From NCBI GenBank assembly GCA_965203555.1, contig CBDBCY010000004.1, forward strand, positions 2,304,001 to 2,368,000: a stretch of 64,000 nt of DNA, in the 5' to 3' direction. This stretch comes from Acidimicrobiia bacterium (GTDB taxonomy: Bacteria > Actinomycetota > Acidimicrobiia > Spongiisociales > ZC4RG35). Positions 2,720-22,091 of the stretch are shown in pieces. Under the pieces are notes generated by a model. It was not told the origin of the DNA, ran no database searches, and was given only the letters and a program-made list of their open reading frames with translations. The position numbers were made by a program, and so were the translations under genes. How positions within the stretch are numbered: position 1 is the first letter of the stretch; every line of letters starts with the position of its first letter.

Positions 2720-3936
2720 ATGAACATGAAGAACCGGGCTGATATCTATGGTGGGGTTGACACCCATCGTGATATGCATGTCGCAGCAGTGGTGGACACC
2801 ACCGGTCGAGTCCTGGGAACGGCTTCGTTTCCGACCGATACGATCGGCTACCAACAACTACACGATTGGTTCAGGTCATTGGGAAGGGCACTCCGAGTAG
2901 GAGTGGAAGGCACCGGAAGCTACGGTGCCGGCCTGACCCGTTATCTGACCCGGGTCGGTATCGAGGTGGTGGAAGTCAACCGTCCCAATCGCCAACTGCG
3001 CCGACAGAAGGGCAAGAGCGACACCGTGGACGCTGAAGCCGCCGCCCGCGCCGCTGCCAACGGTATGGCCACTGCTCTGCCCAAGACCGCCGACGGGCCA
3101 GTAGAAGCGATACGGATGTTGCGGGTCACCCGCCGCTCGGCGGTCAAAGCCCGCACCCAGGCCGCCAACCAACTGCACGCCCTGGTGGTAACCGCTCCCG
3201 AGCAGGTAAAACACCAACTGGTGGGCAAACCCATCCGTACCAGGGTCAGGATCTGCGCCGCGTTCCGTCCCGCCGACGACCACACCACTGTCGCCTACAC
3301 CAAGAAAACTCTCCGTCACCTCGCCCGCCGCTACCAGACACTCACCGCAGAGATCCGAGAACTAAACACCGAAATCGAACGTCTCTGCGTCCGGGTCAAC
3401 CCAGCACTCATCGCCGCGGCCGGGGTGGGCCCGGACGCAGCAGCCGCGTTACTGATAGCATCCGGCGACAATCCCCACCGCTTGCGCTCAGAAGCATCCT
3501 TTGCGGCGCCAGTCCCGTCCAGGCCTCCTCAGGACAGACCGTACGGCACCGCCTCAACCGCGGCGGGAACCGCCAAGCCAACAACGCCCTCTGGCGTATC
3601 GCCATCACCCGCATGCGCATCAACCAACCCACCCAGGAGTACGTCCGAAAACGCCAATCCGACGGCAAAACCCGCCGCGAAATCATCCGTTGCCTCAAAC
3701 GCCACATAGCTCGAGAGATCTACCACCTACTCACCAACCCCCCACCAACACCCGACACCGCCCAGCTCCGCACCCAACGACAACACCACCAGATCACCCT
3801 CACCCACGCCGCCACAGCACTCCGCATCCACCCCACCCTCCTCTCAAAACTGGAAAAAGGCCAACACCACGACCACCAACTCGCCACCACCTACCAACAC
3901 TGGCTCACCACCCAAAACCCGATTTGGAAAAAATAG
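2720..3936 (+). pseudogene. IS110 transposase/recombinase, frameshifted near 3508
   Basis: 'GGVDTHRDMH', 'GVEGTGSYG' and 'GKSDTVDAEAAA' (DEDD domain). After 'SEASFAA' the conserved 'SPVQASSGQTVRHRLNRGGNRQANNAL...RCLKRHIARE' continues in another frame to the stop at 3936. Confidence 0.9.
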
Positions 3937-5373: not shown

Positions 5374-6414
5374 ATGACAACCCGCACTCGTACCGCCACC
5401 AGTCACTACGAAGTCCAGAAAAAGCGCAGATCCGACGAACTGGAGTACTGGCGAGAGAACCGCCTGCACGTCGTCAGAGGCTCGGAAGTGGTCATGCATC
5501 CCACCCCCCGGGGAATTGACCGGGGAGTGCTGGTGGGGCTGGACGGGGACCGGCCGAGTCTGGTGCTGGACGCCCACCGCCATGACATGGCGCCGGGTGT
5601 GGTCTCCACGGTTCATCGTCACTCCTGGGACGCCATCATGTTCGTAACCGATGGTCGAGGATGGACGGAAGTCAACGGGCGGCGATACGACTGGAGGGCC
5701 TGGGACACCGTGTACCTACCCGCCTGGGCATGGCACCGCCACGGAAACGAAGGGGATTCCACCGCCTCATACGTCACCTTCGGCTCCGAACCCTTGGCGG
5801 AATTGGTGGGCATGGCCATCATCGAAGAAGGGGGCGATGCTCCTTTTGGTGATCTCCCGCCCTCGCTGACGGTGGCTGCCCCGGGGATGGGTTCGGATCC
5901 CTACACGCGACGAATCGAGCGTTTGGCCCGCCGCCAGGAGGCCTTTTCGGAGACTCGCATCATGACCGCTTTTGACGACATCCCTTTCCGGGTGACTCCC
6001 CGCGGGGCTCGAAGCGGGTTTCTGGTGGACCGGAGTCTCGGATACAACACTGGTGGCCTCACCGCGGTTATACACCAATTGGCGCCGGGTCTCTACCAGT
6101 CTCGCCATCGTCACGGGGGAGAGGCTTGGCTCTACTGCACTACCGGCCAGGGGTACAGCGTCATTGATGATGAACGCTATGACTGGGGTCCCGGTGACAT
6201 GGCCGTGGTCGACCACTGGGCCTGGCACCAGCATTTCAATGCCTCCGATACCCAGATAGCCGCCATTATCCGGGTTCACAACTTCGACAGTCTCTACATG
6301 GGCATGCGGGCGTTGCTGGACCCCTTGCCTCTCTTCGAGGAACCTCCCAAACTGGATGCTCCCGATCTCGCCGACATGGAATGGCCCCCTGCCGACGCCG
6401 GTCGACCGCAGTGA
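5374..6414 (+). CDS. Bicupin protein (gentisate 1,2-dioxygenase-like)
   Basis: Two cupin repeats: 'HRHSWDAIMFVTDGRG...PAWAWHRHGN' and 'HRHGGEAWLYCTTGQG...HWAWHQHFN'. GGAGG RBS upstream. Confidence 0.8.
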   Translation: MTTRTRTATSHYEVQKKRRSDELEYWRENRLHVVRGSEVVMHPTPRGIDRGVLVGLDGDRPSLVLDAHRHDMAPGVVSTVHRHSWDAIMFVTDGRGWTEVNGRRYDWRAWDTVYLPAWAWHRHGNEGDSTASYVTFGSEPLAELVGMAIIEEGGDAPFGDLPPSLTVAAPGMGSDPYTRRIERLARRQEAFSETRIMTAFDDIPFRVTPRGARSGFLVDRSLGYNTGGLTAVIHQLAPGLYQSRHRHGGEAWLYCTTGQGYSVIDDERYDWGPGDMAVVDHWAWHQHFNASDTQIAAIIRVHNFDSLYMGMRALLDPLPLFEEPPKLDAPDLADMEWPPADAGRPQ

Positions 6415-7319
6415 TCGGAAGGGCCGACACGGCGAGGGAAAACCTCCGCCAAGACCGGTACGGATTCCTGCGCTGGCGACTCCTCCCTCAACCGGGCTGG
6501 GAGCAGTGGTGGGACCGGATCGTGGTTCCTGGGGGAATCAAGCAGCGGTTGGACGACTACACCCGGCAGGCGATCCGTCTGCGGGCCAGGTTCACGCAGG
6601 TGGGAATGCCGCTGCACGGCTTGGTTCTTCTCTACGGTCCGCCAGGAACCGGGAAGACCTCCCTCGCCAAGGGCCTGGCCAACCGTTTGGGTCAGCATCG
6701 CGGCCAGATCATCTTCGCCGAGGTGGATGCCCACGCCATGCCGTCGCAGATGTTGGGGGAGAGCCAACGCAATGTGGCGAATCTGCTCGAGAAGTCAATT
6801 CCGGAGTTGGCCGCCAAGGAACTGCCGGTGGTGGTGTTGATCGACGAGGTGACCTCGGTGGCGGTCAACCGGCAGATGGCGATGGGAGGCACCGATCCGG
6901 TGGATGTGATCCGCGCCACTGACGCCGCGCTCCAGGGGTTGGACCGTCTGGCCTCCGATCATCCCAACGTCCTGCTGGTTGCCACCTCCAACCTGGAGGG
7001 GGCCATCGATGAGGCGGTCCTGAGCCGGGTGGATCTGGCGGTCGAGATCGCGGTTCCCGACCGGGGTGCGAGAGTGCAAATCCTGTCGGACAGCCTGTCC
7101 GAACTGGCTTCGGTATTCAACTCCCGGGGCGCCGCCGTGGATGTGGACCAGAGTGAACTAAGTGACTTGGCGTCGGATCTGGCAGGACTGTCCGGTCGGC
7201 GGCTGCGCAAGCTGGTGTTCGAAGCCGTGCTGATTGCCGGGGAGTCCGGTCAGACCGGATTGACCGTCGAACATCTTCGAATGGCAACGGATCGTTCGGT
7301 CTCCGGGATTGGGCGATGA
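6411..7319 (+). CDS. AAA+ ATPase, Pch2/TRIP13-like
   Basis: Walker A '[18 protein letters not shown]', Walker B 'VVVLIDEV', '[16 protein letters not shown]', sensor 'NVLLVATSN', '[10 protein letters not shown]'. GTGA overlap with the cupin stop. Confidence 0.85.
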   Translation: [302 protein letters not shown]

Positions 7320-8611
7320 TGACGGCGGTGGTCGGCAAGGTGCTGGATCGCATCGACCAGTCCCGGGAGGATCTCGCAGAATTGGCGCTGCGGCTGGGCA
7401 ACACCTACGGCCCGCTGGGAAACGAGGAGCCGACCGCCCGAGCAGTACACGAGTGGTACCGGGAAAACGGGATGGAAAGCCATCTGGTCCCCATGATCGA
7501 AGGTCGGGCCTGCGCAGTGGGACGAGTGCCGGGGGCGGGAGGAGGAAAGTCTCTGATCTTCAATGCTCACCTCGACACGGAAGCATCGGGGCCCGATTTC
7601 GATCTACTGATGGAAGCGCCGGATCCCAACCGGGTTGGCGCCCGCCGGGAAGGGGACCGCATATACGGACACACCGTCCAGAACGATCGGGGTTGCATGG
7701 CCGTGCAGATGATCGCCGGAAGGGCGCTGCTCGGCGCGGGAGCGCCTCTGCGGGGAGACCTGCTGCTCAAGTCGGCGGCAGGGGAGACCGGATCGGCCCC
7801 GGTGGACGAATACCAGGGGCTGCGTTACGAGTCGAAGGGGTTCGGCACCAACTGGCTGCTGGAACACGGCTACGCCGCCGACTACGCCGTCATTGCCGAG
7901 ACCACCGATTTTTCCGCATCGTGGGTTCAATGCGGCGCCGCATACTTCAAAATCACCGTTCGGGGCCGGAACATGTACACCCCGCGCCTGCAAAGACCGG
8001 CCGATTTTTCCGCCCATCCCAACGCCATCGTGCGGGCCGCGGCCCTGATCGGTGCGCTGGAGGAGTGGGCGATTGAGTATGAGAAGTCCCGGACAGTGGA
8101 AACTGCATGCGGCATGATGCGGCCCAAGTCCCAGATAGGGGCTATCAGAGGCGGGATCCCATGGCGGCCCAACCGCTCCTCCACCTATGCCGCCCTTTAC
8201 ATGGATGTGCGGACCCGTCCCGGAGACGACATCTCCGAGATAACTGCTTCCCTCCGCAACGCCATCTCCGCCACCGGGTTGGAGGCCGAACTTCGGCTGA
8301 TCATGTTCAAGCCCGGCTACGCCGCCTCCCAAGCTGCAATAGACCCGCTGTTGCGCGCCATCGCCGATTCGCACCGGTTCGTTCGGGGAGTGGATATGCC
8401 CGAACGCGCCGAATCGGCGGTGGTCTCGATGTGGCGAGATACCAACGTGTACAACCGGGTTGGAATTCCCGCCCTCACTTTCGGACCCAGCCGCGGGCAG
8501 GCTGCCGTGCAGGGGACCGGTTACATGCATCTGGACAATATGTTGGAGGGAGCCAAAATCTACGCTCTTACCGCCCTTTCTATCTGTGCCGGGGTTTCGC
8601 CCCCCTTGTGA
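7316..8611 (+). CDS. M20/ArgE/DapE-family amidohydrolase
   Basis: 'SLIFNAHLDT', 'IYGHTVQNDRG', 'AAGETG', 'ADYAVIAETT', 'GIPALTFGP'. Confidence 0.85.
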   Translation: MMTAVVGKVLDRIDQSREDLAELALRLGNTYGPLGNEEPTARAVHEWYRENGMESHLVPMIEGRACAVGRVPGAGGGKSLIFNAHLDTEASGPDFDLLMEAPDPNRVGARREGDRIYGHTVQNDRGCMAVQMIAGRALLGAGAPLRGDLLLKSAAGETGSAPVDEYQGLRYESKGFGTNWLLEHGYAADYAVIAETTDFSASWVQCGAAYFKITVRGRNMYTPRLQRPADFSAHPNAIVRAAALIGALEEWAIEYEKSRTVETACGMMRPKSQIGAIRGGIPWRPNRSSTYAALYMDVRTRPGDDISEITASLRNAISATGLEAELRLIMFKPGYAASQAAIDPLLRAIADSHRFVRGVDMPERAESAVVSMWRDTNVYNRVGIPALTFGPSRGQAAVQGTGYMHLDNMLEGAKIYALTALSICAGVSPPL

Positions 8612-9798
8612 CTTCGTCTTCTCCGGTCAGATCACCGCTTCGGTATGAGTGGATGGCCCATCTGGGTGGAATGGCGGTCATCACCGGGGTTCAACTGATC
8701 TCTCCCGCCCTTCCCGCCCTCGCCGAACGATTCGCCCTTTCAGAGTCCGAAGTCTCTTTGGTGATCAGCATCTATTTGGTCCCCGCCGCCTTGGCGTCGG
8801 TGCCGGCGGGGTTTCTGGCCGACCGGTTCGGAAGACGGTGGGTCTTCGGCGCCGGCCTGTGTCTGTTCGGCCTGGCGGGGGTGCTTCTGCCTGTGGTGGC
8901 GCAAGAGTCCTTCGGAGCCCTACTGGTAATCAGGTTCATGCAGGGATTGGGATTCGCGCCGGCCTTTCCCCTCACCATCACCATCCTGGGCGATCTGTAC
9001 AAGGGTCCGAGACTGGTTGGCGCGCTGGGACGGCGGTCGGTTCTGATGTCGGTGGCCGACGGCGGCTATCCCATCCTGGGCGGGATCCTGGTGGGCCTTT
9101 CCTGGCTGGCGCCATGGTATCTGCAGGCTCTGGCTCTTCCGATCGGTCTGGTGGTGCTGTTGACCTTTCGGGACTGGGTGCCGCTGGGCAGTCGGGGTGG
9201 CATGGGCGGTATGCGATGGCTCTGGCGCTCGGTGCGTTCCAAGGGCATCCTGTCCCTCCACTACGTGGGTTTTCTCCGGTTCTTCGTCAAGTTCGCTTTG
9301 CTCTCCTACCTCCCGCTGCTGCTGGTGATATCCCGGGACATGACAGCAGCCCAAGCCGGTCTGATACTGGGCACGGCCGCTCTGTGCGGGACCTTGGGAG
9401 CAGCCATGAGCGCAGTGTTGGCCCGCCTCGGCCCGGCGTCCCGGTGGGTCATTGCGGGAATGGTCGTGCAGGGCCTGGGATTGGTGGTGATGGCCTTTGC
9501 GACCCGACTCTGGGTTCTGATGACGGTTGCGGTGATTTACGGGCTGGCCGACGGCGTCCTGGGCACGTTTGTCAACGCTTACCTGGCGTCGGCCACCGAC
9601 CCTGAGCACCGGGCCAGTCTGGTGGCCGCCAATGGGGCCATTAAGAATTTTGGAAAGCTCCTAGCGCCCATCCTGTTGGGGATGATGGTGTTGGTGATGC
9701 CTCTGTCGGTGGGGTTCGCGATTGTGGCGGTCGTGTTGGTCGTCTCGGCCCCGACGGCCGGCCCTCTCCGAGCCTACGACTCCAGGATTTCAAGGTGA
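8608..9798 (+). CDS. MFS transporter
   Basis: Motif A 'GFLADRFGRR' and about 12 hydrophobic segments. Start taken as the GTG overlapping the upstream stop. Confidence 0.9.
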   Translation: MTSSSPVRSPLRYEWMAHLGGMAVITGVQLISPALPALAERFALSESEVSLVISIYLVPAALASVPAGFLADRFGRRWVFGAGLCLFGLAGVLLPVVAQESFGALLVIRFMQGLGFAPAFPLTITILGDLYKGPRLVGALGRRSVLMSVADGGYPILGGILVGLSWLAPWYLQALALPIGLVVLLTFRDWVPLGSRGGMGGMRWLWRSVRSKGILSLHYVGFLRFFVKFALLSYLPLLLVISRDMTAAQAGLILGTAALCGTLGAAMSAVLARLGPASRWVIAGMVVQGLGLVVMAFATRLWVLMTVAVIYGLADGVLGTFVNAYLASATDPEHRASLVAANGAIKNFGKLLAPILLGMMVLVMPLSVGFAIVAVVLVVSAPTAGPLRAYDSRISR

Positions 9799-9921: not shown

Positions 9922-11982
9922 GTGCGAAAAAGATCTTGGCTATCGGCCTTGGTCGTGCTTATGGCCTTGGCGTTGATCACGGCTGCCTGTGGCGATGATG
10001 ACGAAGTCGCTGAAACGACCCAGGCGCCGACAACCACGGCGCCGCCGGCGGAGACTCCTGCGGAGGAACCTGCCGATGAACCGGCTGAAGAGCCCGCCGC
10101 AGAGCCCGAGGACATGGGCTGGGCGCCGAGTGGTGATGTGACGTGGATTGTGCCTTATAACCCTGGTGGTGGTTTTGATACTTACAGTCGGGGTTTGGCG
10201 CAGGTGTTGTCCGAGGGTGGTTTCCTGCCTGATGGTGTGACGGTGGTGGTGGAGAACATCACTCCGATCCAGCAGGGGGTTGCTGCGATGTTCAATGGTG
10301 ATCCTGATGGTCACACGATGGGTATTTTGCCGATGCCGGCTGCGATTGCCCAGGAGTTGATCAATCCGGAGATTTCTCCGTGGTCGACCGGGGAGTTCAC
10401 GGTGTTGGGTTCCATTGAGGAGAATGCCTACGTGTTGTATGTGGCTGCTGATGGTCCTTATCAGTCGATTGATGATTTGATGGGGGCTTCGGGGTTGAAT
10501 TCGTTGACGGTGGAGCGTGGTTCTTCGTCTTCGATCGCCAATGTGGTTGCCAGTGGCGCGTTGGGTTTGGATGCTCAGATCAACTTCGGCGCGGAGGGTT
10601 CTGAGGAGGCTGCGACTGCTTTGATCCGGGGTGATGTTGATTACATCGTTTATGGGACTACCGATTTGGTTGGTTTCATGGATTCTGGTGATTTGCGGGC
10701 GTTGTTGTTCCTGGGTACCGAGGATCAGCGTCCGGAGGCTTTGACCTGGTTGGCTGATGTTCCGAGCATCGCCGATGTCGGTTATCCGGAGGCTGCCGGT
10801 TCGGTGACCGAGTTGCGTGCGGTGGTGATGCCGCCCGGCCTGGACGACGAAGTAGCCGAATACTGGAGGAACACCCTGTACGAGGCGATGACTTCCGACG
10901 ATTTCGCCGCCTGGTCAGAAGAGGCCGGCCGGCCCATCATCCCCCGCGATGCGGAATCGGCCCGTGGCGTGATGGCCGCCCAGGTCGACACCATGAGAGC
11001 TCTCGATCCCGACCTGGTGGCGCAGTTGCGCTCCGAAGGAGCCGCGGCTGCTCCGAGTTGGGCGCCGAGTGGTGATGTGACGTGGATTGTGCCTTATAAC
11101 CCTGGTGGTGGTTTTGATACTTACAGTCGGGGTTTGGCGCAGGTGTTGTCCGAGGGTGGTTTCCTGCCTGATGGTGTGACGGTGGTGGTGGAGAACATCA
11201 CTCCGATCCAGCAGGGGGTTGCTGCGATGTTCAATGGTGATCCTGATGGTCACACGATGGGTATTTTGCCGATGCCGGCTGCGATTGCCCAGGAGTTGAT
11301 CAATCCGGAGATTTCTCCGTGGTCGACCGGGGAGTTCACGGTGTTGGGTTCCATTGAGGAGAATGCCTACGTGTTGTATGTGGCTGCTGATGGTCCTTAT
11401 CAGTCGATTGATGATTTGATGGGGGCTTCGGGGTTGAATTCGTTGACGGTGGAGCGTGGTTCTTCGTCTTCGATCGCCAATGTGGTTGCCAGTGGCGCGT
11501 TGGGTTTGGATGCTCAGATCAACTTCGGCGCGGAGGGTTCTGAGGAGGCTGCGACTGCTTTGATCCGGGGTGATGTTGATTACATCGTTTATGGGACTAC
11601 CGATTTGGTTGGTTTCATGGATTCTGGTGATTTGCGGGCGTTGTTGTTCCTGGGTACCGAGGATCAGCGTCCGGAGGCTTTGACCTGGTTGGCTGATGTT
11701 CCGAGCATCGCCGATGTCGGTTATCCGGAGGCTGCCGGTTCGGTGACCGAGTTGCGTGCGGTGGTGATGCCGCCCGGCCTGGACGACGAAGTAGCCGAAT
11801 ACTGGAAGCGGACTTTGATCACCGCCATGATGTCGGATGATTTCGCCGCCTGGTCAGAAGAAGCAGGCCGGCCCATCATCCCGCGTGGCGCCGAGTCCGC
11901 CAAGAACGTGATGGCCGCCCAGGTCGACACGATGAAGGCCCTGGATCCCGATCTGGTGGCGCAGTTGCGCTCCGAGGGATAA
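9922..11982 (+). CDS. Tripartite tricarboxylate transporter substrate-binding lipoprotein (TctC/Bug) with two tandem domains
   Basis: Lipobox 'ITAAC', acidic Pro/Ala linker, and 'VTWIVPYNPGGGFDTYSR' twice. Confidence 0.9.
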   Translation: MRKRSWLSALVVLMALALITAACGDDDEVAETTQAPTTTAPPAETPAEEPADEPAEEPAAEPEDMGWAPSGDVTWIVPYNPGGGFDTYSRGLAQVLSEGGFLPDGVTVVVENITPIQQGVAAMFNGDPDGHTMGILPMPAAIAQELINPEISPWSTGEFTVLGSIEENAYVLYVAADGPYQSIDDLMGASGLNSLTVERGSSSSIANVVASGALGLDAQINFGAEGSEEAATALIRGDVDYIVYGTTDLVGFMDSGDLRALLFLGTEDQRPEALTWLADVPSIADVGYPEAAGSVTELRAVVMPPGLDDEVAEYWRNTLYEAMTSDDFAAWSEEAGRPIIPRDAESARGVMAAQVDTMRALDPDLVAQLRSEGAAAAPSWAPSGDVTWIVPYNPGGGFDTYSRGLAQVLSEGGFLPDGVTVVVENITPIQQGVAAMFNGDPDGHTMGILPMPAAIAQELINPEISPWSTGEFTVLGSIEENAYVLYVAADGPYQSIDDLMGASGLNSLTVERGSSSSIANVVASGALGLDAQINFGAEGSEEAATALIRGDVDYIVYGTTDLVGFMDSGDLRALLFLGTEDQRPEALTWLADVPSIADVGYPEAAGSVTELRAVVMPPGLDDEVAEYWKRTLITAMMSDDFAAWSEEAGRPIIPRGAESAKNVMAAQVDTMKALDPDLVAQLRSEG
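10120..11979 (+). repeat. Intragenic direct duplication, period 939 bp
   Basis: 10120-10867 appears identical to 11059-11806 by eye. The last ~170-190 bp of each copy are diverged. Confidence 0.92.
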
Positions 11983-12076: not shown

Positions 12077-14110
12077 ATGACACTTCTTGAGGGACTGACC
12101 TCCGCCGCCGATCTCCTGCTCAGTTGGCCGTTGCTGTTGTTCTTTTTGCTGGGAACGCTCAACGGCCTGGTATTTGGCATCCTTCCCGGCTTGAGCGGGT
12201 CGGTGGGAATCGCATTGATGATCCCTCTCACCTTCGGGATCGACATTTCGGAGGCGATCGTGTTGTTTACCGCCGCCCTGTCCGGGCAGACTTTCGCAGG
12301 TTCCATCACGGCCATACTGCTGAACACACCCGGGACCGCGCCCAATGCGGCCACTACCTTCGATGGCTATCAACTCTCCCGCCAGGGTAAGGCCGGGTAT
12401 GCCCTGGGGATATCGGCCATGGCGTCGTCGCTCGGTTCCCTGGTGGGCGTGGTAGTGCTGGTGGGTTTGCTGCCGGCGGTGAGAGTGTTCATACTCTCCT
12501 TCTCCTACCCCGAATTCATGCTGCTGGCATTGATGGGCCTGGCCGCCATCGCCGCGGCTTCCCGGGGGTCGCTCATCAAAGGGCTGATCGCCGGAGGGGT
12601 GGGAGTCATGCTGTCCTTCGTGGGACTGGGATCGTGGGGTCAGCGATATGTATTCAACTCTTTGAGCCTGATTGACGGGGTGGACGTGATTGCGGTGTTG
12701 ATCGGGCTGTTCGCCATCTCCGAGGTGGTGCGACTTCTGAAGCAGAACCGCCCCATCTCCCGGGTCGGGGACATGCCGCTTGACCGCTCGCAGGTCTGGC
12801 AGGGTATGTGGTACGTAATCAAAAAGCCGTTCCTGCTGATCCGCAGCGCCCTGGTGGGCACCGGTCTGGGGATCGTCCCGGCGGTGGGAGGGACGGTTGC
12901 ATCCTTCATGGCCTACTACCAGGCTATGCACACCACCAAGGACGGCAAGTTCGGGCAGGGCGATCCCAGAGGCGTGCTGGCGCCCGAAGCCGCCAACGAC
13001 GGAAAGGACGCCGGTGCGGCGCTTCCCACCCTGGCCTTCGGTCTGCCGGGCAGCTCCGACTGGGCGATCATCCTGGGCGCCATGGTGCTCTACGGGGTGG
13101 TGCCGGGACCGAATCTGTTGCGGGAGCGCCCCGATATCGTCTGGATTGCCATCATCGTCATCCTGGCCGCATCCTGGGTCACCTCGGCGATCGGTATAGC
13201 TGCTTCCCGCTGGCTGGTGCCGGTAACCAAGGTGCGGCCGTCCCTCCTGGCGCCGATCGTGGCGGTTTTGGCGCTGGTGGGGTCATTCGGACTGGAGCGG
13301 CAGTTCGTGGATGTCATATTCACCGTGGGGTTCGGCATCCTGGGCTATTACATGAAGATCCACCGGATGCCGGTGGTGCCGCTCATCCTGGGTCTGTTGC
13401 TGGGAGCCGAAGCCGAGCGTTCCTTTCACCTTTCGATGAACCTCTTTGATCAGGGTTTGCTGGTGTTTCTCACCCGGCCCATCTCCCTGGTCCTGCTGGC
13501 GGTGACCGCCTCTCTCCTGATCGGGTCGGTCTGGTCGGTGGCCCGGCGGCGCAAGAAGCTGGGCGGCGAGGCGGAGGTGGCGATCGCCCCCGCCGAGATG
13601 GGACTGGTGGCGTTCATCGGGGCGGTGATGCTGGCCGCCACTCTTTTCTCTTACACGTTCCCCGCCAACGAAGGGCGACTGTTTCCCCAAGTGGTGGGTT
13701 GGGGGACGGTGGCCCTGGTGTTGATTTTCCTGGTGGTGGCCCGAAACCCCGCCCTGCGGTCCCGTTGGGGATATTTCATCAGTGAGGAGCTGATCCATTT
13801 TGACAGGGGTCAGCAGGAGGAGGCGGAAGAGCCGGTCGTTGCCGAGATCGAATCGGACGACGATCAAGCTCGACGGGAGCGGGCCCTGTTGCTGTCGCTG
13901 TTCGGCTTCCTGGCGGTCGCTTGGCTGGCTGGGCTCAACCTGGTGGCGGTGCCGCTGTACGTCCTGGCCTTGATGAGATGGTTCGGGCGGGAGAAGTGGC
14001 GGACCTCGGTCATCGCGGCGCTGGTCACCACGGTCTTGATCTGGTTCATGATCAACTTCATTCTGAGTTCTCCCATTCACTGGGGTCTGCTGCTTGAGCC
14101 CCTTTTCTGA
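12077..14110 (+). CDS. Tripartite tricarboxylate transporter permease TctA with a fused C-terminal TctB-like region
   Basis: 'GILPGLSG', 'AILLNTPGTAPNAATTFDGY', 'GVLAPEAANDG', 'PTLAFGLPGS'. An extra ~170-aa hydrophobic tail contains 'LFPQVV'. Confidence 0.88.
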   Translation: MTLLEGLTSAADLLLSWPLLLFFLLGTLNGLVFGILPGLSGSVGIALMIPLTFGIDISEAIVLFTAALSGQTFAGSITAILLNTPGTAPNAATTFDGYQLSRQGKAGYALGISAMASSLGSLVGVVVLVGLLPAVRVFILSFSYPEFMLLALMGLAAIAAASRGSLIKGLIAGGVGVMLSFVGLGSWGQRYVFNSLSLIDGVDVIAVLIGLFAISEVVRLLKQNRPISRVGDMPLDRSQVWQGMWYVIKKPFLLIRSALVGTGLGIVPAVGGTVASFMAYYQAMHTTKDGKFGQGDPRGVLAPEAANDGKDAGAALPTLAFGLPGSSDWAIILGAMVLYGVVPGPNLLRERPDIVWIAIIVILAASWVTSAIGIAASRWLVPVTKVRPSLLAPIVAVLALVGSFGLERQFVDVIFTVGFGILGYYMKIHRMPVVPLILGLLLGAEAERSFHLSMNLFDQGLLVFLTRPISLVLLAVTASLLIGSVWSVARRRKKLGGEAEVAIAPAEMGLVAFIGAVMLAATLFSYTFPANEGRLFPQVVGWGTVALVLIFLVVARNPALRSRWGYFISEELIHFDRGQQEEAEEPVVAEIESDDDQARRERALLLSLFGFLAVAWLAGLNLVAVPLYVLALMRWFGREKWRTSVIAALVTTVLIWFMINFILSSPIHWGLLLEPLF

Positions 14111-14562
14111 TGCCCGCGCAGGAGTTTCGCCGCGAAGTGGTTGTCAATCTGAGCCGTCCCAGAATGTGGGAAGTGCTGTTGGATGTGGAGACGGTGGCCG
14201 GTTGGGTGGGTTTGATCGGTGAGGTGAGAGAGGTTGTTCCTCTTTCACACTATGTGGCGGTGCTCCAGGACCGGGTGGGTCCCTTTCGATTGAGGGCCGA
14301 CCTGGCAATCCTCGTCAAGGAAATGGATCGGGGGTCGAAGGTGGTGCTGGAGGCGGAAGGCGAGGATCGCCAGGTCCGTTCCCGGATAAAGGTGAATCTG
14401 ACCCTCCGTCTGTTCGACACCCCGGAGGACGCCACGGCCTTGCGGCTTCAGGGTCGCTACGAGGTCACCGGACGGGTGGCGACTCTGGGCGCCTCGCTCA
14501 TCAGGCACAAGGCCGAGACCATTTTAAACGAGTTCTGCGCCAGGGCGGCGAAGGCGGCCTAG
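14110..14562 (+). CDS. CoxG/SRPBCC family protein
   Basis: 'MWEVLLDVETVAGWV', 'VGPFRLR', 'VTGRVATLGASLIRHKAE'. Confidence 0.8.
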   Translation: MPAQEFRREVVVNLSRPRMWEVLLDVETVAGWVGLIGEVREVVPLSHYVAVLQDRVGPFRLRADLAILVKEMDRGSKVVLEAEGEDRQVRSRIKVNLTLRLFDTPEDATALRLQGRYEVTGRVATLGASLIRHKAETILNEFCARAAKAA

Positions 14563-15358: not shown

Positions 15359-15846
15359 TCGGGGTGGAGACGGTCGAGATAACCCCGATGGTCAACGGGC
15401 GGGAGATGGTCGTTTCCGTGCCGGTGAGAATGACACTGGCCGAGATGCTGCGGGACCGGTTGGACCTGTTCGGCGTGAAGCTCAGTTGCGAGATGCAGGT
15501 GTGCGGGGTGTGTACCGTTCTGGTCGACGACCAACCGGTGTCCTCCTGCACCCTCCTGGCGGCCGACGTGGATCGAAGACGGGTACTGACCATTGAAGGT
15601 CTGGCGGACGGGGAGCAACTTCATCCCATCCAGCAGGCCTTCGTGGACCACTTTGCGTTGCAATGCGGCTTCTGCACCCCGGGATTCATATTGATGACCA
15701 AGCATCTGCTGGAGCGTTCGCCGGACCCGGGCCCCGATGAGATCGTTGAACACTTCGATGGGAATCTGTGTCGCTGCACCGGCTACGCGCCGATCATCGA
15801 GGCGGTGGCGGATGCGGCCGGCCGTCTGCGGGCCAATCCCTCATGA
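15355..15846 (+). CDS. Xanthine-dehydrogenase-family 2Fe-2S subunit (CoxS-like)
   Basis: 'SCEMQVCGVCTV..SSC', 'LQCGFCTPG', 'NLCRCTGY'. Confidence 0.95.
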   Translation: MIGVETVEITPMVNGREMVVSVPVRMTLAEMLRDRLDLFGVKLSCEMQVCGVCTVLVDDQPVSSCTLLAADVDRRRVLTIEGLADGEQLHPIQQAFVDHFALQCGFCTPGFILMTKHLLERSPDPGPDEIVEHFDGNLCRCTGYAPIIEAVADAAGRLRANPS

Positions 15847-18083
15847 TCTCTCCCCCCCGGCTGGACGCGGTCCCCAAGGTGACCGGCAGGGCGCGTTACG
15901 CGGTGGATTTCCGAGCCCCGAACATGCTTTATTCGTCATTGGTCCGATCAGAACGGGCTCATGCCATGCTGGAAGGCATCGACGCTTCGGCGGCGCTGGC
16001 CACCGAGGGGGTGGTGGCGGTTATCACCGGCTACGACCTCGCTCCGCTCTTCCCCCGCTTCGGTCACATCATCGCAGACCATCCCATCCTGGCGATCGAC
16101 AAGGTGCGTTACCTTGGCGAACCGGTGGCGCTGGTGCTGGCTGAGGATCGGTACGCCGCTTCGGACGGCGCGGAGTCGGTGCAGGTCGCCTACCGGGAAC
16201 TGGCGGCGGTGATGGATCCCGAGCAGGCCTTGGCGGAGGATGCTCCCCTGCTCCACACCACCGATTACGGGGTGGGTGACCGTTCCTTCGAGGAGGCTCA
16301 CTCGGAGTCTCGCTCCGACAACGTCTGCCACCGGGTGGAGCTTTCATGGGGAGACGTGGATCAGGCTTTGTCCGAAGCCGACCTGGTGGTGGAGACCTCT
16401 ACCTCTTATCCCAAGCTGTACGGCTATGCGATGGAGCCCTACAACGCTCTTGCCCGTTTCGAGGACGGGTATCTGAAGGTGATCACCACCGCTCAGCATC
16501 CGTTCATGGTCCGGGACGATCTGGCCCGGGTGTTCTCCCTGCCGCTCAGCCATGTTCGGGTCACCTCACCCTATGTGGGCGGCGGCTACGGCACCAAGTC
16601 CTACACCAAGGTCGAACCGCTGGCGGCGGTGGGCGCCTGGTACACCGGTCGACCGGTGAAGGTGGAACTCGACGCTACCGGCTCGATCCTCACTACCCGC
16701 GCCGACTCGGCTCAGGTCACCATCCGGTCCGGATTCAAGGCCGACGGCGTGCTTTTGGCCCGCGATGTTCGGTTGACCCTGGACACCGGCGCCTACGCCG
16801 ACAACGGGCCGTTGGTGCTTTCCAAGGCCTCTAATCGCTCCTTCGGTCCCTACCGGAACGAAAACGTGCGGGTGAGCGGCACCGCGGTGTACACCAATAC
16901 GGTTCCGTCTTCCTCCTATCGGGGATTCGGCGCCCCGCAGGTCAGCCTGGCGTCCGAGCTCAACATGGATCAGGCTGCCCAGCAACTGGGTGTCGACCCC
17001 GTCCAGTTGCGTCGCCGCAATCTCATTCCACCCGGCGAGCGTCACTATCCGGGCAAACGCCCGATGGACGCCGATCTGGTGTCCGACCTCGACCTTCTGG
17101 CGGAGGCGCTGGGCTGGGGGGACCCGGTGGAGGAGCGCCAGGGAATCGGGTTCGGGGTGACCGCCTCCGACGCGGGGGCCTACCCGGTCTCCACCGCCAC
17201 GGTCAAGATTCTCCCCGACGGTTCGGTGCTGGTGTCGACCGGCTCGTCGGAGATGGGGCAGGGGAGCAGAACGGCGCTGGCCGTGATCGCCTCCCGGGAG
17301 TTGGGAGTTGCCTTGGAGAGGGTGGCCATAGCCCAATCCGACACGCACGCCACTCCTTATGAACGGACCTCTGGAGCGAGCCGTACCACCACCCTCACCG
17401 GCCTGGCCGTCCAGAGGGCCTGTTCGGAACTGTTGTCGCGTCTGGAGACGGCAGCTGCGGAACTTCGGGGAGGTCCGCTCACCGAAGTAAAGGCGGCTGA
17501 AGGGATGGTGGTAGGGCCGTGGGGCGATCTCACTTTCGGAGAGGTGGTGCAGGGTTGGTTCGGCGGCCGGCTGGGAGAGCTGTCGGCCACCGGGGTGGTG
17601 CGCCGGGTGGGAGAGTTGGAAGAGCTTCCTCCCTTCTGGGAGATCGGGGTGTCGGGGGTGAAAGTGCGTGTCGACTCCGACACCGGCCAGGTGACCTGTC
17701 TGCGCATGGTTACGGTGGCCGACGTCGGCCATGCCATTCATCCGGAGATGCTCAAGGGGCAGGATGTGGGAGCGGCCACCCAGGGGCTGGGTGCGGCGCT
17801 CTATGAAGAATTGGTGTACGACGGCCCGCAGTTGGTCAACTCCAACCTGGTGGAGTACCGGGTTCCCCGCGCCGGGGACATGCCCACCCAGATCGTGACC
17901 ATCGTGGCGGAGCGTGGTGACGGGGTGGGTCCCTACGGCGCCAAAGGGGGAGGGGAGGGAACTCTGAATCCCATAGGGGGAGCCACCGCCGCCGCGGTCG
18001 GCCGGGCGGTGGGCCGCTGGCCGGACCGGCTGCCACTCACTCCGGAACGAGTGTGGAGATTGATGAGAGGAGACGGAAGCTGA
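15843..18083 (+). CDS. Xanthine-dehydrogenase-family molybdopterin-binding subunit
   Basis: 'KVTGRARY', 'VGGGYGTK', 'SYRGFGAPQ', 'EMGQG', 'GAKGGGEG'. Confidence 0.93.
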   Translation: MISPPRLDAVPKVTGRARYAVDFRAPNMLYSSLVRSERAHAMLEGIDASAALATEGVVAVITGYDLAPLFPRFGHIIADHPILAIDKVRYLGEPVALVLAEDRYAASDGAESVQVAYRELAAVMDPEQALAEDAPLLHTTDYGVGDRSFEEAHSESRSDNVCHRVELSWGDVDQALSEADLVVETSTSYPKLYGYAMEPYNALARFEDGYLKVITTAQHPFMVRDDLARVFSLPLSHVRVTSPYVGGGYGTKSYTKVEPLAAVGAWYTGRPVKVELDATGSILTTRADSAQVTIRSGFKADGVLLARDVRLTLDTGAYADNGPLVLSKASNRSFGPYRNENVRVSGTAVYTNTVPSSSYRGFGAPQVSLASELNMDQAAQQLGVDPVQLRRRNLIPPGERHYPGKRPMDADLVSDLDLLAEALGWGDPVEERQGIGFGVTASDAGAYPVSTATVKILPDGSVLVSTGSSEMGQGSRTALAVIASRELGVALERVAIAQSDTHATPYERTSGASRTTTLTGLAVQRACSELLSRLETAAAELRGGPLTEVKAAEGMVVGPWGDLTFGEVVQGWFGGRLGELSATGVVRRVGELEELPPFWEIGVSGVKVRVDSDTGQVTCLRMVTVADVGHAIHPEMLKGQDVGAATQGLGAALYEELVYDGPQLVNSNLVEYRVPRAGDMPTQIVTIVAERGDGVGPYGAKGGGEGTLNPIGGATAAAVGRAVGRWPDRLPLTPERVWRLMRGDGS

Positions 18084-18775
18084 TGGATGTGAGCAGGCTG
18101 GAGCCGTGGGTGGCGGAGGCGCGCCGCCGCTACCGGACCGCCGAGGATATGGTCACCGGAGTTCTCCGGGAGGCGATCGTCACCGGCGCGTTCAGTCCCG
18201 GAGAGCGACTTCCCCAGGATCAGCTGGCCGAGTTGTTGATGGTCAGCCGTATGCCCATCCGTGCCGCCCTGCGCCAACTGGACTCCGAAGGGCTGGTGGT
18301 CAACATTCCCCATCGCGGCGCCAAGGTGCGGGAATTGTCACCTGCCGAGTTGCGTGAGTTGTACGAACTGCGGGTGGTGGTGGAGTGTTTTGCATTGCGC
18401 CGGTCGGTGGGGGAGGCCGTTCCCACGGACCTTCTGGAGTTGGGGGAACTGGCCGAAAGCTGCGAAGAAGCCGAGGAAGGAGATGAGTGGATCCGACAGA
18501 GGTGCGCCTTCTACCGGCGGCTTTACACCATTGGCAACGGAGTCAGGGTGGTGGATACCATCATGGCGCTTCGCGCCGAAGTGAGCCGGTACTTGTTGCG
18601 GAAGAGGTTCTGTCCCGGGTGGCACCGAGAATTGCTGGATATTCTGGCCAAGGGCGATGCCGAAGAGGCTGCCAAGTCCCTCGAGGACCATCTGATGGAG
18701 GTGCTGGAGTCGATGGAAGAGGAGATCAGCGCCGCCAATGGGTGGAACGGAGCAGGGGACCGGGAGGAAGGATGA
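18083..18775 (+). CDS. GntR-family (FCD) transcriptional regulator
   Basis: 'LREAIVTGAFSPGERL..LAELLMVSRMPIRAALRQLDSEGLV...PHRGAKV'. Confidence 0.92.
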   Translation: MDVSRLEPWVAEARRRYRTAEDMVTGVLREAIVTGAFSPGERLPQDQLAELLMVSRMPIRAALRQLDSEGLVVNIPHRGAKVRELSPAELRELYELRVVVECFALRRSVGEAVPTDLLELGELAESCEEAEEGDEWIRQRCAFYRRLYTIGNGVRVVDTIMALRAEVSRYLLRKRFCPGWHRELLDILAKGDAEEAAKSLEDHLMEVLESMEEEISAANGWNGAGDREEG

Positions 18776-19722
18776 GAAAGGAGCAGGTTGCTTTCTACAG
18801 CCACGGGGAGAGAGTGGTGGGTACCCTGCACCTGCCCGATTCGAGCGGGAGCCGTCCAGGTCCGGCCATAGTTCAGGGACCGGGCTGGATGGGTTTGCGC
18901 ACCGCCGGGCTGTACGGTCCCTACCACCAGGCCTTTGTGTCGGCGGGAATGGCGGTCCTGATCATCGACTACCGGGGGTTCGGCGATTCGGGAGGCGATC
19001 TGATGGCCTTCTCCCCGGCGCGACAACTGGAAGATCTGATCAATGCGGTGACCTATCTCACCACTCGCCCCGAGGTGGATGCCGATCGGATCGGCGCATT
19101 CGGGTCGGGAGGGACGGGGGGCGGCAATGCGGTTTGCCTGGCTGCATCGGATGCGAGGGTGAGGAGCGTGGTCTCCCAGGTTCCGGTTGCCGACGGTCGC
19201 GACTGGCTGCGGAGAATGCGACGGGGCTACGAGTGGCAGGAATTCTTGGAGCGGATACAAACCGACAGGGCCAAGAGGGTGATCACCGGCCAGGGGGAGT
19301 TGGTCCATCCCCAAGAGATCATGATTCCAACTCCTGAACGGAGGGCCACCAGCATAAAAAAGGACGTCGATTCCCGGGTTCCCGTTCGCCTGCCCCTGGC
19401 GGCGGCGGAGGGGATCATGGCCTACCAACCGGTCGAGATGGTTGATCGGATCTCTCCCCGGCCGTTGCTGATCGTGGCGGTGGAAAACGATCCGGTCACC
19501 CCCACCGATCACGCCCGGGCGCTCTACGACCGGGCCGGTCCGCCCAAGAAACTGATTGTTCAGCGGCACACCACCCATTACGCCGCCTACCGGCAATACG
19601 GCAGGACGATCATTCCCCACATAGTGGGCTGGTTTCGAAAAGGTCTGGGGACGGCCAGGATAAAGGCTGTCGAAGCAACCACGGACAAAGAGGAGCACAT
19701 GATTATCGAGGAGATCGAATGA
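18772..19722 (+). CDS. Alpha/beta-hydrolase fold protein with atypical nucleophile elbow
   Basis: 'IDYRGFGDSGG', 'VDADRIGAFGSGGTGGGNA', 'PLLIVAVENDPVTP', 'TTHY'. Confidence 0.85.
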   Translation: MRKEQVAFYSHGERVVGTLHLPDSSGSRPGPAIVQGPGWMGLRTAGLYGPYHQAFVSAGMAVLIIDYRGFGDSGGDLMAFSPARQLEDLINAVTYLTTRPEVDADRIGAFGSGGTGGGNAVCLAASDARVRSVVSQVPVADGRDWLRRMRRGYEWQEFLERIQTDRAKRVITGQGELVHPQEIMIPTPERRATSIKKDVDSRVPVRLPLAAAEGIMAYQPVEMVDRISPRPLLIVAVENDPVTPTDHARALYDRAGPPKKLIVQRHTTHYAAYRQYGRTIIPHIVGWFRKGLGTARIKAVEATTDKEEHMIIEEIE

Positions 19723-21110
19723 ACATCAACAGAGTCATCAGAGGCGCCGCGGTGGTCAGGGAGGGTTGTCTGCAGGAGATGGACATTATGGTGGCCGGGG
19801 AGCGGATCTCCGGGCTGGCCGTGCCGGGTGCCATCGCGCCCCCCTTTTCCGCTGAGGTGGTGGAGGCTGACGGATTGTGGGCTTTGCCGGGGGGAGTCGA
19901 TGTCCATGTCCACTTGCGGGAACCCGGTTATACCCACAAGGAGGACATCGAGACCGCCACCCGCGCCGCGGCGGCCGGCGGCTACACCACCGTGTTGGGG
20001 ATGCCCAACCTGAAGCCGCCCACCATGACCGCCGACGATCTCCGGGAGACTTTGAAGTTGTACGACCGAAAGAGCCTGGTGGACTACAACCACAATCCCG
20101 CCGCCAAGCAAAAAGAGGAACTGGCGGAGATGGCGACAATGGGGATCGCCGCCTACAAGATCTACATGGTCGCCGATACCGGCCGGTCGTATCCGCATCC
20201 TGCCGCCATCGGGGTTCATGATCACGGACATCTCTTGGAAGCGATGCAGACCGTGGCCGAAACCGGTCTGATTTTGATGGTCCATCCTCATGACCAACGC
20301 ATAGAAGAAGTGGTGGAGCAGCGTTTCTGGGATGCGGGGGACCGATCCCCCGAGGCGTATGCACGCACTCTGATGACCGGAGACGGGATGCTGTGGGACA
20401 CCGCTTCCGCTCTCCTGATCCGCATGGCCGAGGCCACCGGCTGTCGATTGCACATTGTGCACACCACCACCACCCGCCAGATCGAGATGATCCGAGCGGC
20501 GCGCCGGCGCGGCGTGGCGGTTACCTGCGAGGCGAATCATTGGACACTGTTTCTCGCCACCTGGGAGTTGGTGAAGGAGTTGGGTCCCTACGTGCTTTCG
20601 TATTGGGTTCCCCCCCATCACCAGGAAGCGGTGTGGAGAGCCCTGGCCGATGGGTCCATCGACATGGTCGCCTCCGATCACGCTCCCCACACCAGGGAGG
20701 AGAAGGACGTCGGCTACCGGGACATGTGGGCCGCTCACACCGGAACCCCCGGGATCCAATACCAGTTGCCTCTCCTGATCGACGCCCACCATCAGGGCCG
20801 GATCTCCCTGGCCCGGCTGGTGGAGGTGGTGGCGGGCGCCCCCGCCCGGCTGTTCGGTCTCTCCGGAAAGGGCCGGATCGAGCCGGGCGCCGACGCCGAC
20901 CTGGTCCTGGTCGATCCTCACAGGGAGTGGACGATCACCAACGAGTCGGTGCTTTCCAAGATCGACTGGACTCCCTATCACGGACGAACAATTAGGGGAG
21001 CGGTGCGGCGCACGATGGTGCGGGGGACCGACGTCTACGTCGATGGAGAAGTTGTAGGGACCCCAGGCTTTGGTCGCCAAGCTGTTCCCGACGCCCCCAA
21101 TAGGAGTTGA
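19719..21110 (+). CDS. Dihydroorotase/allantoinase-family cyclic amidohydrolase
   Basis: 'PGGVDVHVHLREPG', 'AAAAGGYTTV', 'LHIVH', 'ASDHAPH', 'KGRIEPGADADLV'. Confidence 0.92.
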   Translation: MNINRVIRGAAVVREGCLQEMDIMVAGERISGLAVPGAIAPPFSAEVVEADGLWALPGGVDVHVHLREPGYTHKEDIETATRAAAAGGYTTVLGMPNLKPPTMTADDLRETLKLYDRKSLVDYNHNPAAKQKEELAEMATMGIAAYKIYMVADTGRSYPHPAAIGVHDHGHLLEAMQTVAETGLILMVHPHDQRIEEVVEQRFWDAGDRSPEAYARTLMTGDGMLWDTASALLIRMAEATGCRLHIVHTTTTRQIEMIRAARRRGVAVTCEANHWTLFLATWELVKELGPYVLSYWVPPHHQEAVWRALADGSIDMVASDHAPHTREEKDVGYRDMWAAHTGTPGIQYQLPLLIDAHHQGRISLARLVEVVAGAPARLFGLSGKGRIEPGADADLVLVDPHREWTITNESVLSKIDWTPYHGRTIRGAVRRTMVRGTDVYVDGEVVGTPGFGRQAVPDAPNRS

Positions 21111-21113
21111 ACC

Positions 21114-22091
21114 ATGAATTTCGGATTGTTGCTGCCCCACTTCGGTCGTCACATCGACCGCGACATGCTCTGGGACGGGGCGAGGAGAGCAGAGGAACTG
21201 GGCTTTGACTCCCTGTGGGTCAGAGACCATCTGATGTTCGAGCCCCATGGAGAATTCGAGGCGCCCAACAGGTCTTTTCTGGAGCCCTTAACGGTGCTGA
21301 CGTCGGTGGGGGCAGTCACTTCCTCGATCATGCTGGGAACAGCAACCCTGATTCCCTATCGTCATCCGCTGGTGGTTGCCGCCACCCTTGCTTCGGTCGA
21401 TTCGCTGGTCGGCAATGGCCGCCTGATCACCGCCTGGGGGGCCGGCGGCTATGACTTCGAATTCGAAGCCGTTGGGATCACCGGCGTATTCCGACCCGAG
21501 TTGGTGGAGTCCAATGCGCGGATCCTGGCCAAGATTCTCTCCGAGGACCACGTCACCTACCAGGACAGGCACTACCGGTTCGAGAACGCCACCATCCGCC
21601 CCCATCCCGCCACTCCCATTCCCTTCTGGTACGGAGGGGCCACTCCCGCCTCGGCTCGCCGAGCCGCCACCTATTGCAGCGGCTGGATGCCGGGACGGAT
21701 CACCCTTCCCACCATCGCCAAGCGGGTGGCCCAGATGCAAGGGCTCACCCGGGAGAACGGACGTCCCATGCCGACGGTCGCCTGCATACCGCCCACCAGC
21801 ATCGCCGAGACCACCGAGGAGGCCATGGCCGGGACGTCGCTCGAAGGACTTCTCGCCTGGGCCAACACCCGCGGCAAATGGTGGGTCAAGCCTCCTTCGG
21901 GTCGCTTCGAGACCGCCGAGGACATCGAAGGTTCCCTGATCGCAGGAACCCCGGACGAGGTGGTAACCGCCACCGCCAAGTTCGAAGACGTGGGCGTCGA
22001 CCACCTGGTCTTCGACCTGCGTCTCTCCTTCGACCGATGGCTTCAGAGCATCGACCTGCTGGGCAGAGAGGTGATCCCCCGCCTTCGATAA
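21114..22091 (+). CDS. LLM-class (luciferase-like, possibly F420-dependent) oxidoreductase
   Basis: 'AEELGFDSLWVRDH', 'LGTATLIPYRHP', 'PFWYGG'. Confidence 0.9.
   Translation: MNFGLLLPHFGRHIDRDMLWDGARRAEELGFDSLWVRDHLMFEPHGEFEAPNRSFLEPLTVLTSVGAVTSSIMLGTATLIPYRHPLVVAATLASVDSLVGNGRLITAWGAGGYDFEFEAVGITGVFRPELVESNARILAKILSEDHVTYQDRHYRFENATIRPHPATPIPFWYGGATPASARRAATYCSGWMPGRITLPTIAKRVAQMQGLTRENGRPMPTVACIPPTSIAETTEEAMAGTSLEGLLAWANTRGKWWVKPPSGRFETAEDIEGSLIAGTPDEVVTATAKFEDVGVDHLVFDLRLSFDRWLQSIDLLGREVIPRLR

Follow-up and report, generated by a model that had tools for sequence, protein, structure and literature searches.

The window analyzed here is a stretch of 64,000 nucleotides from an Acidimicrobiia bacterium (assembly GCA_965203555.1, contig CBDBCY010000004.1, C4:2304001-2368000). 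The gene under consideration lies at 6411..7319 on its forward strand and encodes a 302-residue AAA+ ATPase, which translation, profile, fold and motifs assign to a bicupin-linked lineage of the Trip13/Cap6 family. Immediately upstream, at 5374..6414 (+), is its partner, the gene for a 346-residue bicupin resembling gentisate/salicylate 1,2-dioxygenases, with two Cupin_2 matches; directly downstream, at 7316..8611 (+), is a gene for an amidohydrolase of the M20 family (M20_dimer, ArgE/DapE-like by Pfam and NCBIfam profiles). The three genes are interlocked: the GTG start of the ATPase gene shares the bases GTGA (6411-6414) with the bicupin stop, and its own stop shares ATGA (7316-7319) with the M20 start, giving an overlap of four bases on each side. 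An alternative in-frame ATG is present at 6381; the family alignment agrees with the start at 6411. A preliminary description of this DNA had pointed to both overlaps and to five TRIP13-like motif strings; the overlaps are as described, and all five strings occur in the open 302-residue frame.

Family membership of the ATPase

The PADLOC model for TRIP13 (PDLC00915) matches the window ATPase with 271.8 bits (E 1.9e-81, profile positions 12-290 of 302), while the next-best PADLOC family, IetA, reaches 85.4 bits. Pfam assigns the protein to the generic AAA family only (PF00004, 78.9 bits, 5.9e-22), and no NCBIfam model reaches its cut-off. A MoxR-family profile is absent among the 15 Pfam matches, with AAA_5 scoring merely 23.7 bits against the 78.9 of PF00004. 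Among sequences of solved structures in PDB, C. elegans PCH-2 (111.6 bits) and human TRIP13 (100-103 bits) give the highest scores over a single stretch; p97-type proteins top the ranking because their two domains each contribute about 60 bits. The Cap6 protein of a type III cyclic oligonucleotide-based antiphage signaling system (CBASS) encoded elsewhere in the same genome served as a control: it too has PCH-2 and TRIP13 as its first matches, with lower scores than the window copy against the same chains (94.9 and 82-84 bits, respectively).

An AlphaFold model of the ATPase, built on a 30-sequence alignment, has a predicted local distance difference test score (pLDDT) of 86, and a Foldseek search with it recovers only PCH-2 and TRIP13 structures at ranks 1-12 (best 2.6e-19, TMq 0.75), with E. 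coli MS115-1 Trip13 (6p8v_C) at rank 14 (TM 0.75/0.75). The protein aligns with residues ~110-396 of the 432-residue TRIP13 chains, and the model has about 60 residues ahead of the P-loop strand. The Walker A lysine (K82), the Walker B acidic pair (D145/E146), the sensor-1 asparagine (N194) and the arginines R206 and R263 are present without exception (100%) in the 37 bicupin-linked as well as the 54 HORMA-linked sequences. Together, the PADLOC, PDB, Foldseek and motif results support the family assignment well, and we regard it as close to certain; the earlier view that this is a TRIP13-like protein and not a generic AAA ATPase is borne out, down to a PCH-2 score above that of a genuine Cap6. 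Judged by its motifs, the window protein is predicted to be a catalytically intact, hexameric-type AAA+ remodeler of the bacterial Trip13/Cap6 family. Eukaryotic TRIP13 is itself a classical-clade AAA+ protein that remodels a client by pulling on its N-terminal tail (Ye et al., 10.1101/694695).

Conserved pairing with the bicupin

Orthologs of the ATPase (E<=1e-30) and of the bicupin (E<=1e-40) co-occur in exactly the same 11 members of a set of 61 related genomes. Besides this genome, the carriers are eight of the other 16 species in its genus and a single species from each of two more genera in the family. The bicupin, ATPase and M20 genes are adjacent and in the same order in all ten other carriers; two of these (G018 and G033) have a Cox set upstream in divergent orientation, with the bicupin-Trip13-M20 triad intact. 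Within this syntenic block the ATPase diverges faster than its neighbors: identity inside the genus is ~80% for the ATPase and 86-91% for the neighbors, and across genera it is 52-53% and 64-74%, respectively.

A survey of species-representative genomes with an ATPase profile, in which neighbors were sought by tblastn with the proteins of this genome, extends the pairing far beyond the genus. Among the best 80 of 169 relatives, 26 loci have a bicupin homolog (45-66% identical) next to the ATPase and no HORMA match, whereas 53 have HORMA matches directly downstream of the ATPase; a single locus has neither partner. The 26 bicupin-linked loci come from Acidimicrobiia, Mycobacteriaceae, Streptomyces, Actinoplanes, Actinoallomurus, Pseudonocardia, Chloroflexota, Acidobacteriota and Burkholderiales. 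Approached from the other side, a metagenome scan with the bicupin alignment gave 420 relatives, and in 71 of the best 80 loci the ATPase gene lies directly downstream of the bicupin on the same strand. Six of these 80 loci break off no more than 193 nt past the bicupin and are uninformative; for the 74 informative loci, with more than 193 nt of downstream DNA, the count is 71/74. The cupin linkage noticed at this locus is conserved far outside the genus.

The remaining neighbors are far more variable. Eighty-three clean open reading frames (ORFs) could be taken from 14 of the 26 bicupin-linked loci for a Pfam survey, chosen by third-position GC content in high-GC DNA, which is an imperfect guide. 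They include RraA-like aldolases, Amidohydro_2 proteins, isochorismatase-family hydrolases, thiamine pyrophosphate enzymes, an aldehyde dehydrogenase, IclR and transporters of the ABC, NMT1, Tct and MFS types, and the bicupin is the only constant neighbor of the bicupin-linked ATPase in these loci. An M20 gene follows the pair in all ten relatives, in two of the 26 bicupin-linked genome loci and in 29 of the 80 metagenome loci, though many of the latter do not reach far enough to show it; in loci of the mycobacterial type an isochorismatase-family gene stands in its place. Homologs of the Cox large subunit occur in three of the 26 loci (L033, L058 and L086). The trio of S15-hydrolase, Amidohydro_1 and luciferase-like genes that the window cluster has at its far downstream end is found directly upstream of the bicupin in a Chloroflexota locus (L035).

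Two further genes near the pair deserve mention in their own right. A second, different cupin of ~345 residues with one Cupin_2 stretch is encoded two genes past the ATPase, behind the isochorismatase-family gene, at L034:9637-10665, and has equivalents in the mycobacterial-type loci L036, L040, L042, L049 and L052. In Pseudonocardia acidicola an EutA-family (PF06277) ATPase gene lies three genes downstream of the bicupin-Trip13 pair (L107:11639-13135).

These neighborhoods bear on which protein the ATPase might serve. AAA+ activases of metabolic enzymes are known in Rubisco activase (Rca/CbbX) and in CoxD, which acts for CO dehydrogenase, and the preliminary description had named both the bicupin and the molybdoenzyme as possible clients in a role like that of CoxD. 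A client in the M20 hydrolase or the molybdenum hydroxylase would fit the translational coupling of the M20 gene to the ATPase gene, its place after the pair in every relative and in over a third of the metagenome loci, and the Cox-type genes within the cluster of the window. Against this, both enzymes are found at only a small minority of the bicupin-linked genome loci, the M20 gene is replaced in mycobacterial-type loci, the M20 N-terminus has no threonine ladder of the kind described below for the bicupin, and the ATPase is of the Trip13 and not the MoxR type, as its best Pfam match (PF00004) and weak AAA_5 score indicate. We consider this assignment improbable; the molybdoenzyme in particular is not supported as a client, since Cox-type genes, like the M20 gene, are found with the pair at some loci and not at others, whereas the bicupin is constant. 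The bicupin is in our judgment the probable client of the ATPase.

The same neighborhoods speak to whether bicupin and Trip13 could form a conflict or defense module, with the bicupin as sensor or effector. The closest characterized relatives of the ATPase are defense proteins, and the window has, 1.7-3.9 kb upstream, a DUF222-domain gene (1478-2530) and an IS110-family transposase gene (2720-3709). These two genes, however, lie outside the synteny seen in the relatives, the neighbors in the 14 loci surveyed are transporters and catabolic enzymes instead of defense genes, and the bicupin has no PADLOC match and keeps dioxygenase-type metal ligands, which together make a defense role very improbable.

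HORMA genes, CBASS and the ATPase tree

The window ATPase is not encoded with a HORMA partner, and its neighbors, the bicupin and M20 genes, do not form a type III CBASS operon. The preliminary description had reported no HORMA or CD-NTase gene; this holds for the window and fails for the genome as a whole. Run against the entire genome, the TRIP13 model picks up a second copy with a higher score at C4:1947955-1948806 (gene at C4:1947895-1948803). This Trip13 heads a complete two-HORMA type III CBASS (C4:1947895-1952105), which lies ~362 kb away from the window and also encodes a PADLOC-HORMA protein, a bacHORMA_2 protein, a SMODS CD-NTase and a SAVED-nuclease effector. Models for bacHORMA_2, PADLOC HORMA (PDLC00881) and SMODS have one match each genome-wide, all at C4:1.9488-1.9503 Mb and none in the window. 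The CBASS locus is followed by a type I restriction-modification methylase and specificity subunit, and an HTH_17 gene and a weak PIN_3-like gene lie directly upstream of it on the opposite strand.

To place the two copies, we used a tree of 94 sequences, none of which was dropped: the window ATPase, those of the ten relatives and the 80 survey loci, the genome's own CBASS copy, and its ARC and FtsH modules as outgroups. Groups were set by gene context before the tree was built. All 54 HORMA-linked sequences, together with the one lacking either partner (L077), form one clade with a Shimodaira-Hasegawa-like approximate likelihood-ratio (SH-aLRT) support of 96, and none of the 37 bicupin-linked sequences falls within it; these make up two groups plus one long branch. 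On this tree two changes account for the context labels, against ~29 for shuffled labels. Constraining the bicupin-linked sequences to one clade gives a tree marginally better than the unconstrained one, and the approximately unbiased test does not reject it (p-AU 0.64). The window ATPase joins the HORMA-linked Trip13s against the ARC and FtsH modules (SH-aLRT 100) in a set that holds no eukaryotic TRIP13, one-HORMA Cap6, p97, Vps4 or katanin sequences. Within it, the genome's own CBASS copy sits inside the HORMA-linked clade and the window copy outside. The window ATPase is, thus, a member of a separate, non-CBASS lineage whose constant neighbor is the bicupin. Under the outgroup root, which very long branches make unreliable, the bicupin-linked forms come out basal to the HORMA-linked clade, so that the metabolic pairing could be as old as, or older than, the pairing with HORMA proteins in CBASS and eukaryotes.

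A spare or decaying Cap6 that serves the HORMA proteins of the genome in trans would be conceivable given the two-HORMA type III CBASS in this genome and the 41% identity of the two ATPases across 249 residues. Yet neither bacHORMA_2 nor a second Trip13 (E<=1e-30) is found in any of the ten other carrier genomes among the relatives, with this genome as the positive control for bacHORMA_2, the ATPase motifs are all intact, the lineage is kept across phyla, and the two copies separate in the tree; this explanation is close to refuted. The companion model bacHORMA_1 (PF18138) matched none of the 61 genomes and was silent in the control genomes too, and is uninformative.

The bicupin as a putative dioxygenase

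The nearest solved relatives of the bicupin, by sequence and fold, are gentisate, salicylate and 5-nitrosalicylate 1,2-dioxygenases (3bu7, 2d40, 2phd, 8ch4, 4fag), at 18-23% identity. HRH...WHxH motifs are present in both barrels. In an alignment of 28 of 35 sequences, H245, H247, E250, H285 and H287 of the C-terminal barrel are invariant, as are H83 and H121 of the N-terminal barrel, where H81 is replaced by asparagine in 3/28. The NCBIfam equivalogs score far below their cut-offs (76 bits against 650, and 62.3 against 442 for TIGR02272). The bicupin is most likely a metal-dependent ring-cleaving dioxygenase; the hydrolase of the M20 or isochorismatase type that often follows the pair would fit such an enzyme with an amide or ester product.

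An alternate-threonine tail at the bicupin N-terminus

A second feature that unites the bicupins is their extreme N-terminus. In the window protein, residues 2-10 (5377..5403, +) carry threonines at positions 3, 5, 7 and 9 and constitute a proposed grip site for the ATPase pore; in the structural model residues 1-10 are coil (mean pLDDT 63) and residues 11-29 form a helix. T5, T7, H11, Y12, Q15, R18 and R19 are invariant in 28/28 aligned sequences. Counted from the histidine of the HY motif, threonine is found at -4 and -6 in 76/76 metagenome and 35/35 genome-set N-termini, serine or threonine at -8 in 61/76 and 32/35, and threonine at -2 in 34/76 and 18/35, respectively. Thus, the bicupin tail has hydroxyl residues at every second position just before the first helix. 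Of 72 distinct bicupin tails, 67 contain a run of at least three alternate serines or threonines; among 1652 ORFs of this genome that are confidently coding, with approximate starts, 34 do. Such a run is absent from the M20 N-terminus and from the second cupin of the mycobacterial loci.

A parallel is offered by the clients of CBASS Trip13. In the E. coli CdnC:HORMA:Pch2 structure, as presented in 10.1101/694695, pore loop 1 holds even-numbered residues of the HORMA N-terminus via main-chain hydrogen bonds, while a histidine ladder of pore loop 2 contacts Ser/Thr side chains at odd positions; the same paper describes conserved Ser/Thr at every second position of HORMA N-termini, continuing into helix alpha-A. 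The P. aeruginosa ATCC27853 two-HORMA type III CBASS is likewise studied there. In our two-HORMA loci, a run of at least three alternate Ser/Thr residues is present in 35 of 40 distinct HORMA2-type N-termini and in 4 of 39 of the HORMA1 type.

Two other candidates for a contact between the proteins were considered and dropped. Position 167 of the ATPase, which is histidine in 94% of HORMA-linked and 62% of bicupin-linked sequences, was rejected as the counterpart of the E. coli Pch2 pore-loop-2 histidine on account of the isoleucine in the window's own subclade. The whole N-terminal segment of the bicupin (HY-VQK-RR) was rejected as a mark tied to the ATPase since a bicupin from a genome without the ATPase (G321) keeps the motif. 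As that protein retains the helix motif, and the model puts the motif in helix 11-29, only the threonine tail remains as a candidate handle. That the ATPase engages this tail has, in our estimate, slightly less than an even chance.

Proposed function

We propose that the window ATPase is a non-CBASS remodeler of the Trip13 lineage dedicated to the upstream, translationally coupled bicupin, probably as its activase or reactivase, a reading that we favor by a narrow margin over its negation. By analogy with the grip of CBASS Trip13 on the Ser/Thr-periodic HORMA tail, the ATPase ring would hold the flexible alternate-threonine tail of the bicupin in its pore and tug on the first helix, partly unfolding or re-setting the enzyme. 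The most likely purpose would be to activate or reactivate a ring-cleaving metalloenzyme, e.g. by freeing it of a dead-end ligand or of a wrongly bound or oxidized metal, or through a change of assembly state, in what may be a pathway for an aromatic or N-heteroaromatic acid.

Several observations weigh against so exclusive a relationship. As to sampling, the carrier counts among the related genomes are not independent, these genomes being kin; the 80 genome loci are those most similar to the query; and the metagenome counts cover the best 80 of 420 bicupin relatives, the other 340 being weaker. The tree was built without eukaryotic TRIP13 and one-HORMA Cap6 and has just two outgroup AAA modules. 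As to gene order, the bicupin lies ~1 kb downstream of the ATPase at one genome locus (L037), and the three informative metagenome loci without the standard arrangement have the ATPase 1.4 kb upstream of the bicupin (L150), no ATPase within 3.5 kb on either side and a luciferase-like monooxygenase downstream by Pfam (L144), or no ATPase in the DNA covered, which extends only 447 nt upstream (L149). When 401 genomes were sampled evenly across the phylum, the bicupin family (E<=1e-60) proved rare, with four carriers, and only two of these four also have the ATPase: this genome, where the genes are adjacent, and G337, where they are adjacent but convergent. Of the other two, G321 encodes an intact bicupin without any Trip13-like gene at E<=1e-30, and G259 has a frameshifted bicupin and likewise no ATPase. 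Taking the metagenome majority with these exceptions, the pairing is strong yet not obligatory.

Further points concern expression of the pair and contact between the two proteins. A metatranscriptome library (X1) contains three contigs 95-99% like the window, one spanning the bicupin/ATPase junction (6275-6608) and one the ATPase/M20 junction (7171-7557), which offer a weak hint of co-transcription only, since DNA carry-over is possible and there is no silent control stretch. No contig from two other RNA libraries (X4 and X5) aligned to the window. The intact bicupin of the ATPase-less G321 genome has a shortened tail without threonine at -6, as a handle would predict, but it makes up the entire negative set, and the frameshifted G259 copy keeps serine at -6 and threonine at -4. 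No residue of the window ATPase can be matched securely to the pore-loop-2 histidine with which E. coli Pch2 reads Ser/Thr. Finally, physical binding is something we infer, as are the engagement of the tail and the direction of the effect.

As to the direction of the effect, the ATPase could also act on the bicupin as a negative regulator or quality-control unfoldase that dismantles or inactivates the enzyme, or passes damaged enzyme to proteases. CBASS Trip13 is such an off-switch, which takes apart the active HORMA complex, in the account of it given in 10.1101/694695, and the pairing and tail evidence suit negative regulation as well as they suit activation. An inactivator translationally coupled to its target within the same catabolic operon is, however, harder to rationalize than an activase, and no protease gene is consistently adjacent in the 14 loci covered by the Pfam survey; we hold this alternative to be unlikely, though it is the strongest of the rivals. 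A bicupin-directed (re)activase remains the reading we prefer, with the proviso that activation or reactivation, as opposed to inactivation, is only tentatively advanced as the outcome.

Wider surroundings of the locus

The genes beyond the triad continue on the forward strand. The longest ORF for the MFS transporter spans 8107..9798; its Pfam MFS_1 domain begins only at ORF residue 186, and translation probably starts beyond the end of the M20 gene at 8611. The stretch 8649-9798 is syntenic in the relatives. There follow a TctC-like binding protein (9922-11982, +), which at 686 residues and with two Pfam TctC stretches is unusually long, and a fused TctA/TctB permease in a single ORF of 677 residues (12077-14110, +, Pfam). 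The Tct genes are syntenic in eight of the ten relatives; they are absent from the DNA covered at one further locus (L025), and TctAB is cut by a contig end at the other (L023). A molybdenum hydroxylase set, recognized by Pfam, comprises a CoxG-like protein (14110-14562, +), the FAD subunit (14564-15358, +), the [2Fe-2S] subunit (15355-15846, +) and the Mo-binding large subunit (15768-18083, +). A GntR/FCD regulator (18053-18775, +), an alpha/beta hydrolase of the S9/S15 type (18487-19722, +), an Amidohydro_1 protein (19719-21110, +) and a luciferase-like monooxygenase (21114-22091, +) probably form the remainder of the catabolic cluster (18053..22091).

Further along, an 891-residue ORF at 22362-25037 has a GPP34-like domain (residues 29-236) ahead of a cytochrome P450 domain (261-676), and represents either an unusual fusion or two genes joined by the ORF caller. 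A C-5 cytosine DNA methylase on the reverse strand (26709-28379) is followed by three ORFs without Pfam matches on the same strand (28052-28765, 28762-29751 and 29748-31457), and the GC content falls to 0.575-0.578 across 28-32 kb of the window; the segment 26709-31457 (-) may be a restriction or defense island. An IS21-type pair consists of a transposase with rve and Mu-transposase C-terminal domains (38701-39999) and an IstB helper ATPase (39996-40781).

Significance and comparison with known systems

To our knowledge, all Trip13/Pch2 ATPases known so far, in meiosis, the spindle checkpoint and bacterial CBASS, act on HORMA-domain proteins. Our literature search, which covered titles and the starts of abstracts, with subscription-only papers and supplements outside its scope, found no description of a Trip13-bicupin pair, and the TRIP13 passages of PMC7159879 treat the protein in the HORMA context only. 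If the proposal made here is correct, the bicupin would be the first non-HORMA class of client for a Trip13/Pch2 remodeler, in a conserved lineage that spans several phyla, and the ATPase a new kind of ATP-dependent enzyme activase in the catabolism of aromatic compounds. The shared Ser/Thr-periodic tail would also offer a sequence rule for the choice of clients by Trip13-type ATPases. More speculatively, and with the odds against it, the bicupin might be a two-state metalloenzyme, the Trip13 lineage an ATP-driven reset device outside immunity, and the tail a portable 'Trip13 handle' common to HORMA proteins and bicupins; such an alternate-threonine handle could then be used to predict further Trip13 clients. 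Culturable carriers of the pair exist in Actinoplanes, Pseudonocardia acidicola, Actinoallomurus acaciae and Streptomyces.

Set beside known enzymes, the bicupin shares its fold and His-rich metal motifs with the gentisate, salicylate and 5-nitrosalicylate dioxygenases, while it differs from them in having its strictly invariant histidine set in the C-terminal barrel and in its conserved threonine-ladder tail. The ATPase finds its best sequence and fold matches among solved structures in eukaryotic TRIP13/PCH-2. Unlike these, it lacks the N-terminal domain for recognition of substrate or adapter, at 302 residues against the 424-433 of their chains, and has neither a HORMA client nor an adapter of the p31comet type.

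With the Trip13/Cap6 of two-HORMA type III CBASS it has in common a build of one AAA+ module, ~300 residues long and lacking the N-terminal domain of the eukaryotic proteins, the PDLC00915 model (351.8 bits for the CBASS copy of the same genome against the value given above for the window copy), identical catalytic motifs, largely common pore-loop regions and a partner protein whose first helix is preceded by an N-terminal tail of alternate Ser/Thr. The two differ in that the window locus has no HORMA, CD-NTase or effector genes and the bicupin is its constant neighbor, that the window ATPase belongs to a separate lineage in the tree, and that its genomic setting is catabolic and not one of defense. 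To Rubisco activase and CoxD the likeness would be functional only: here too an ATPase is encoded beside a metabolic enzyme that it may reset or mature, whereas its best profiles, Trip13 and classical AAA, place it outside the families of those activases.

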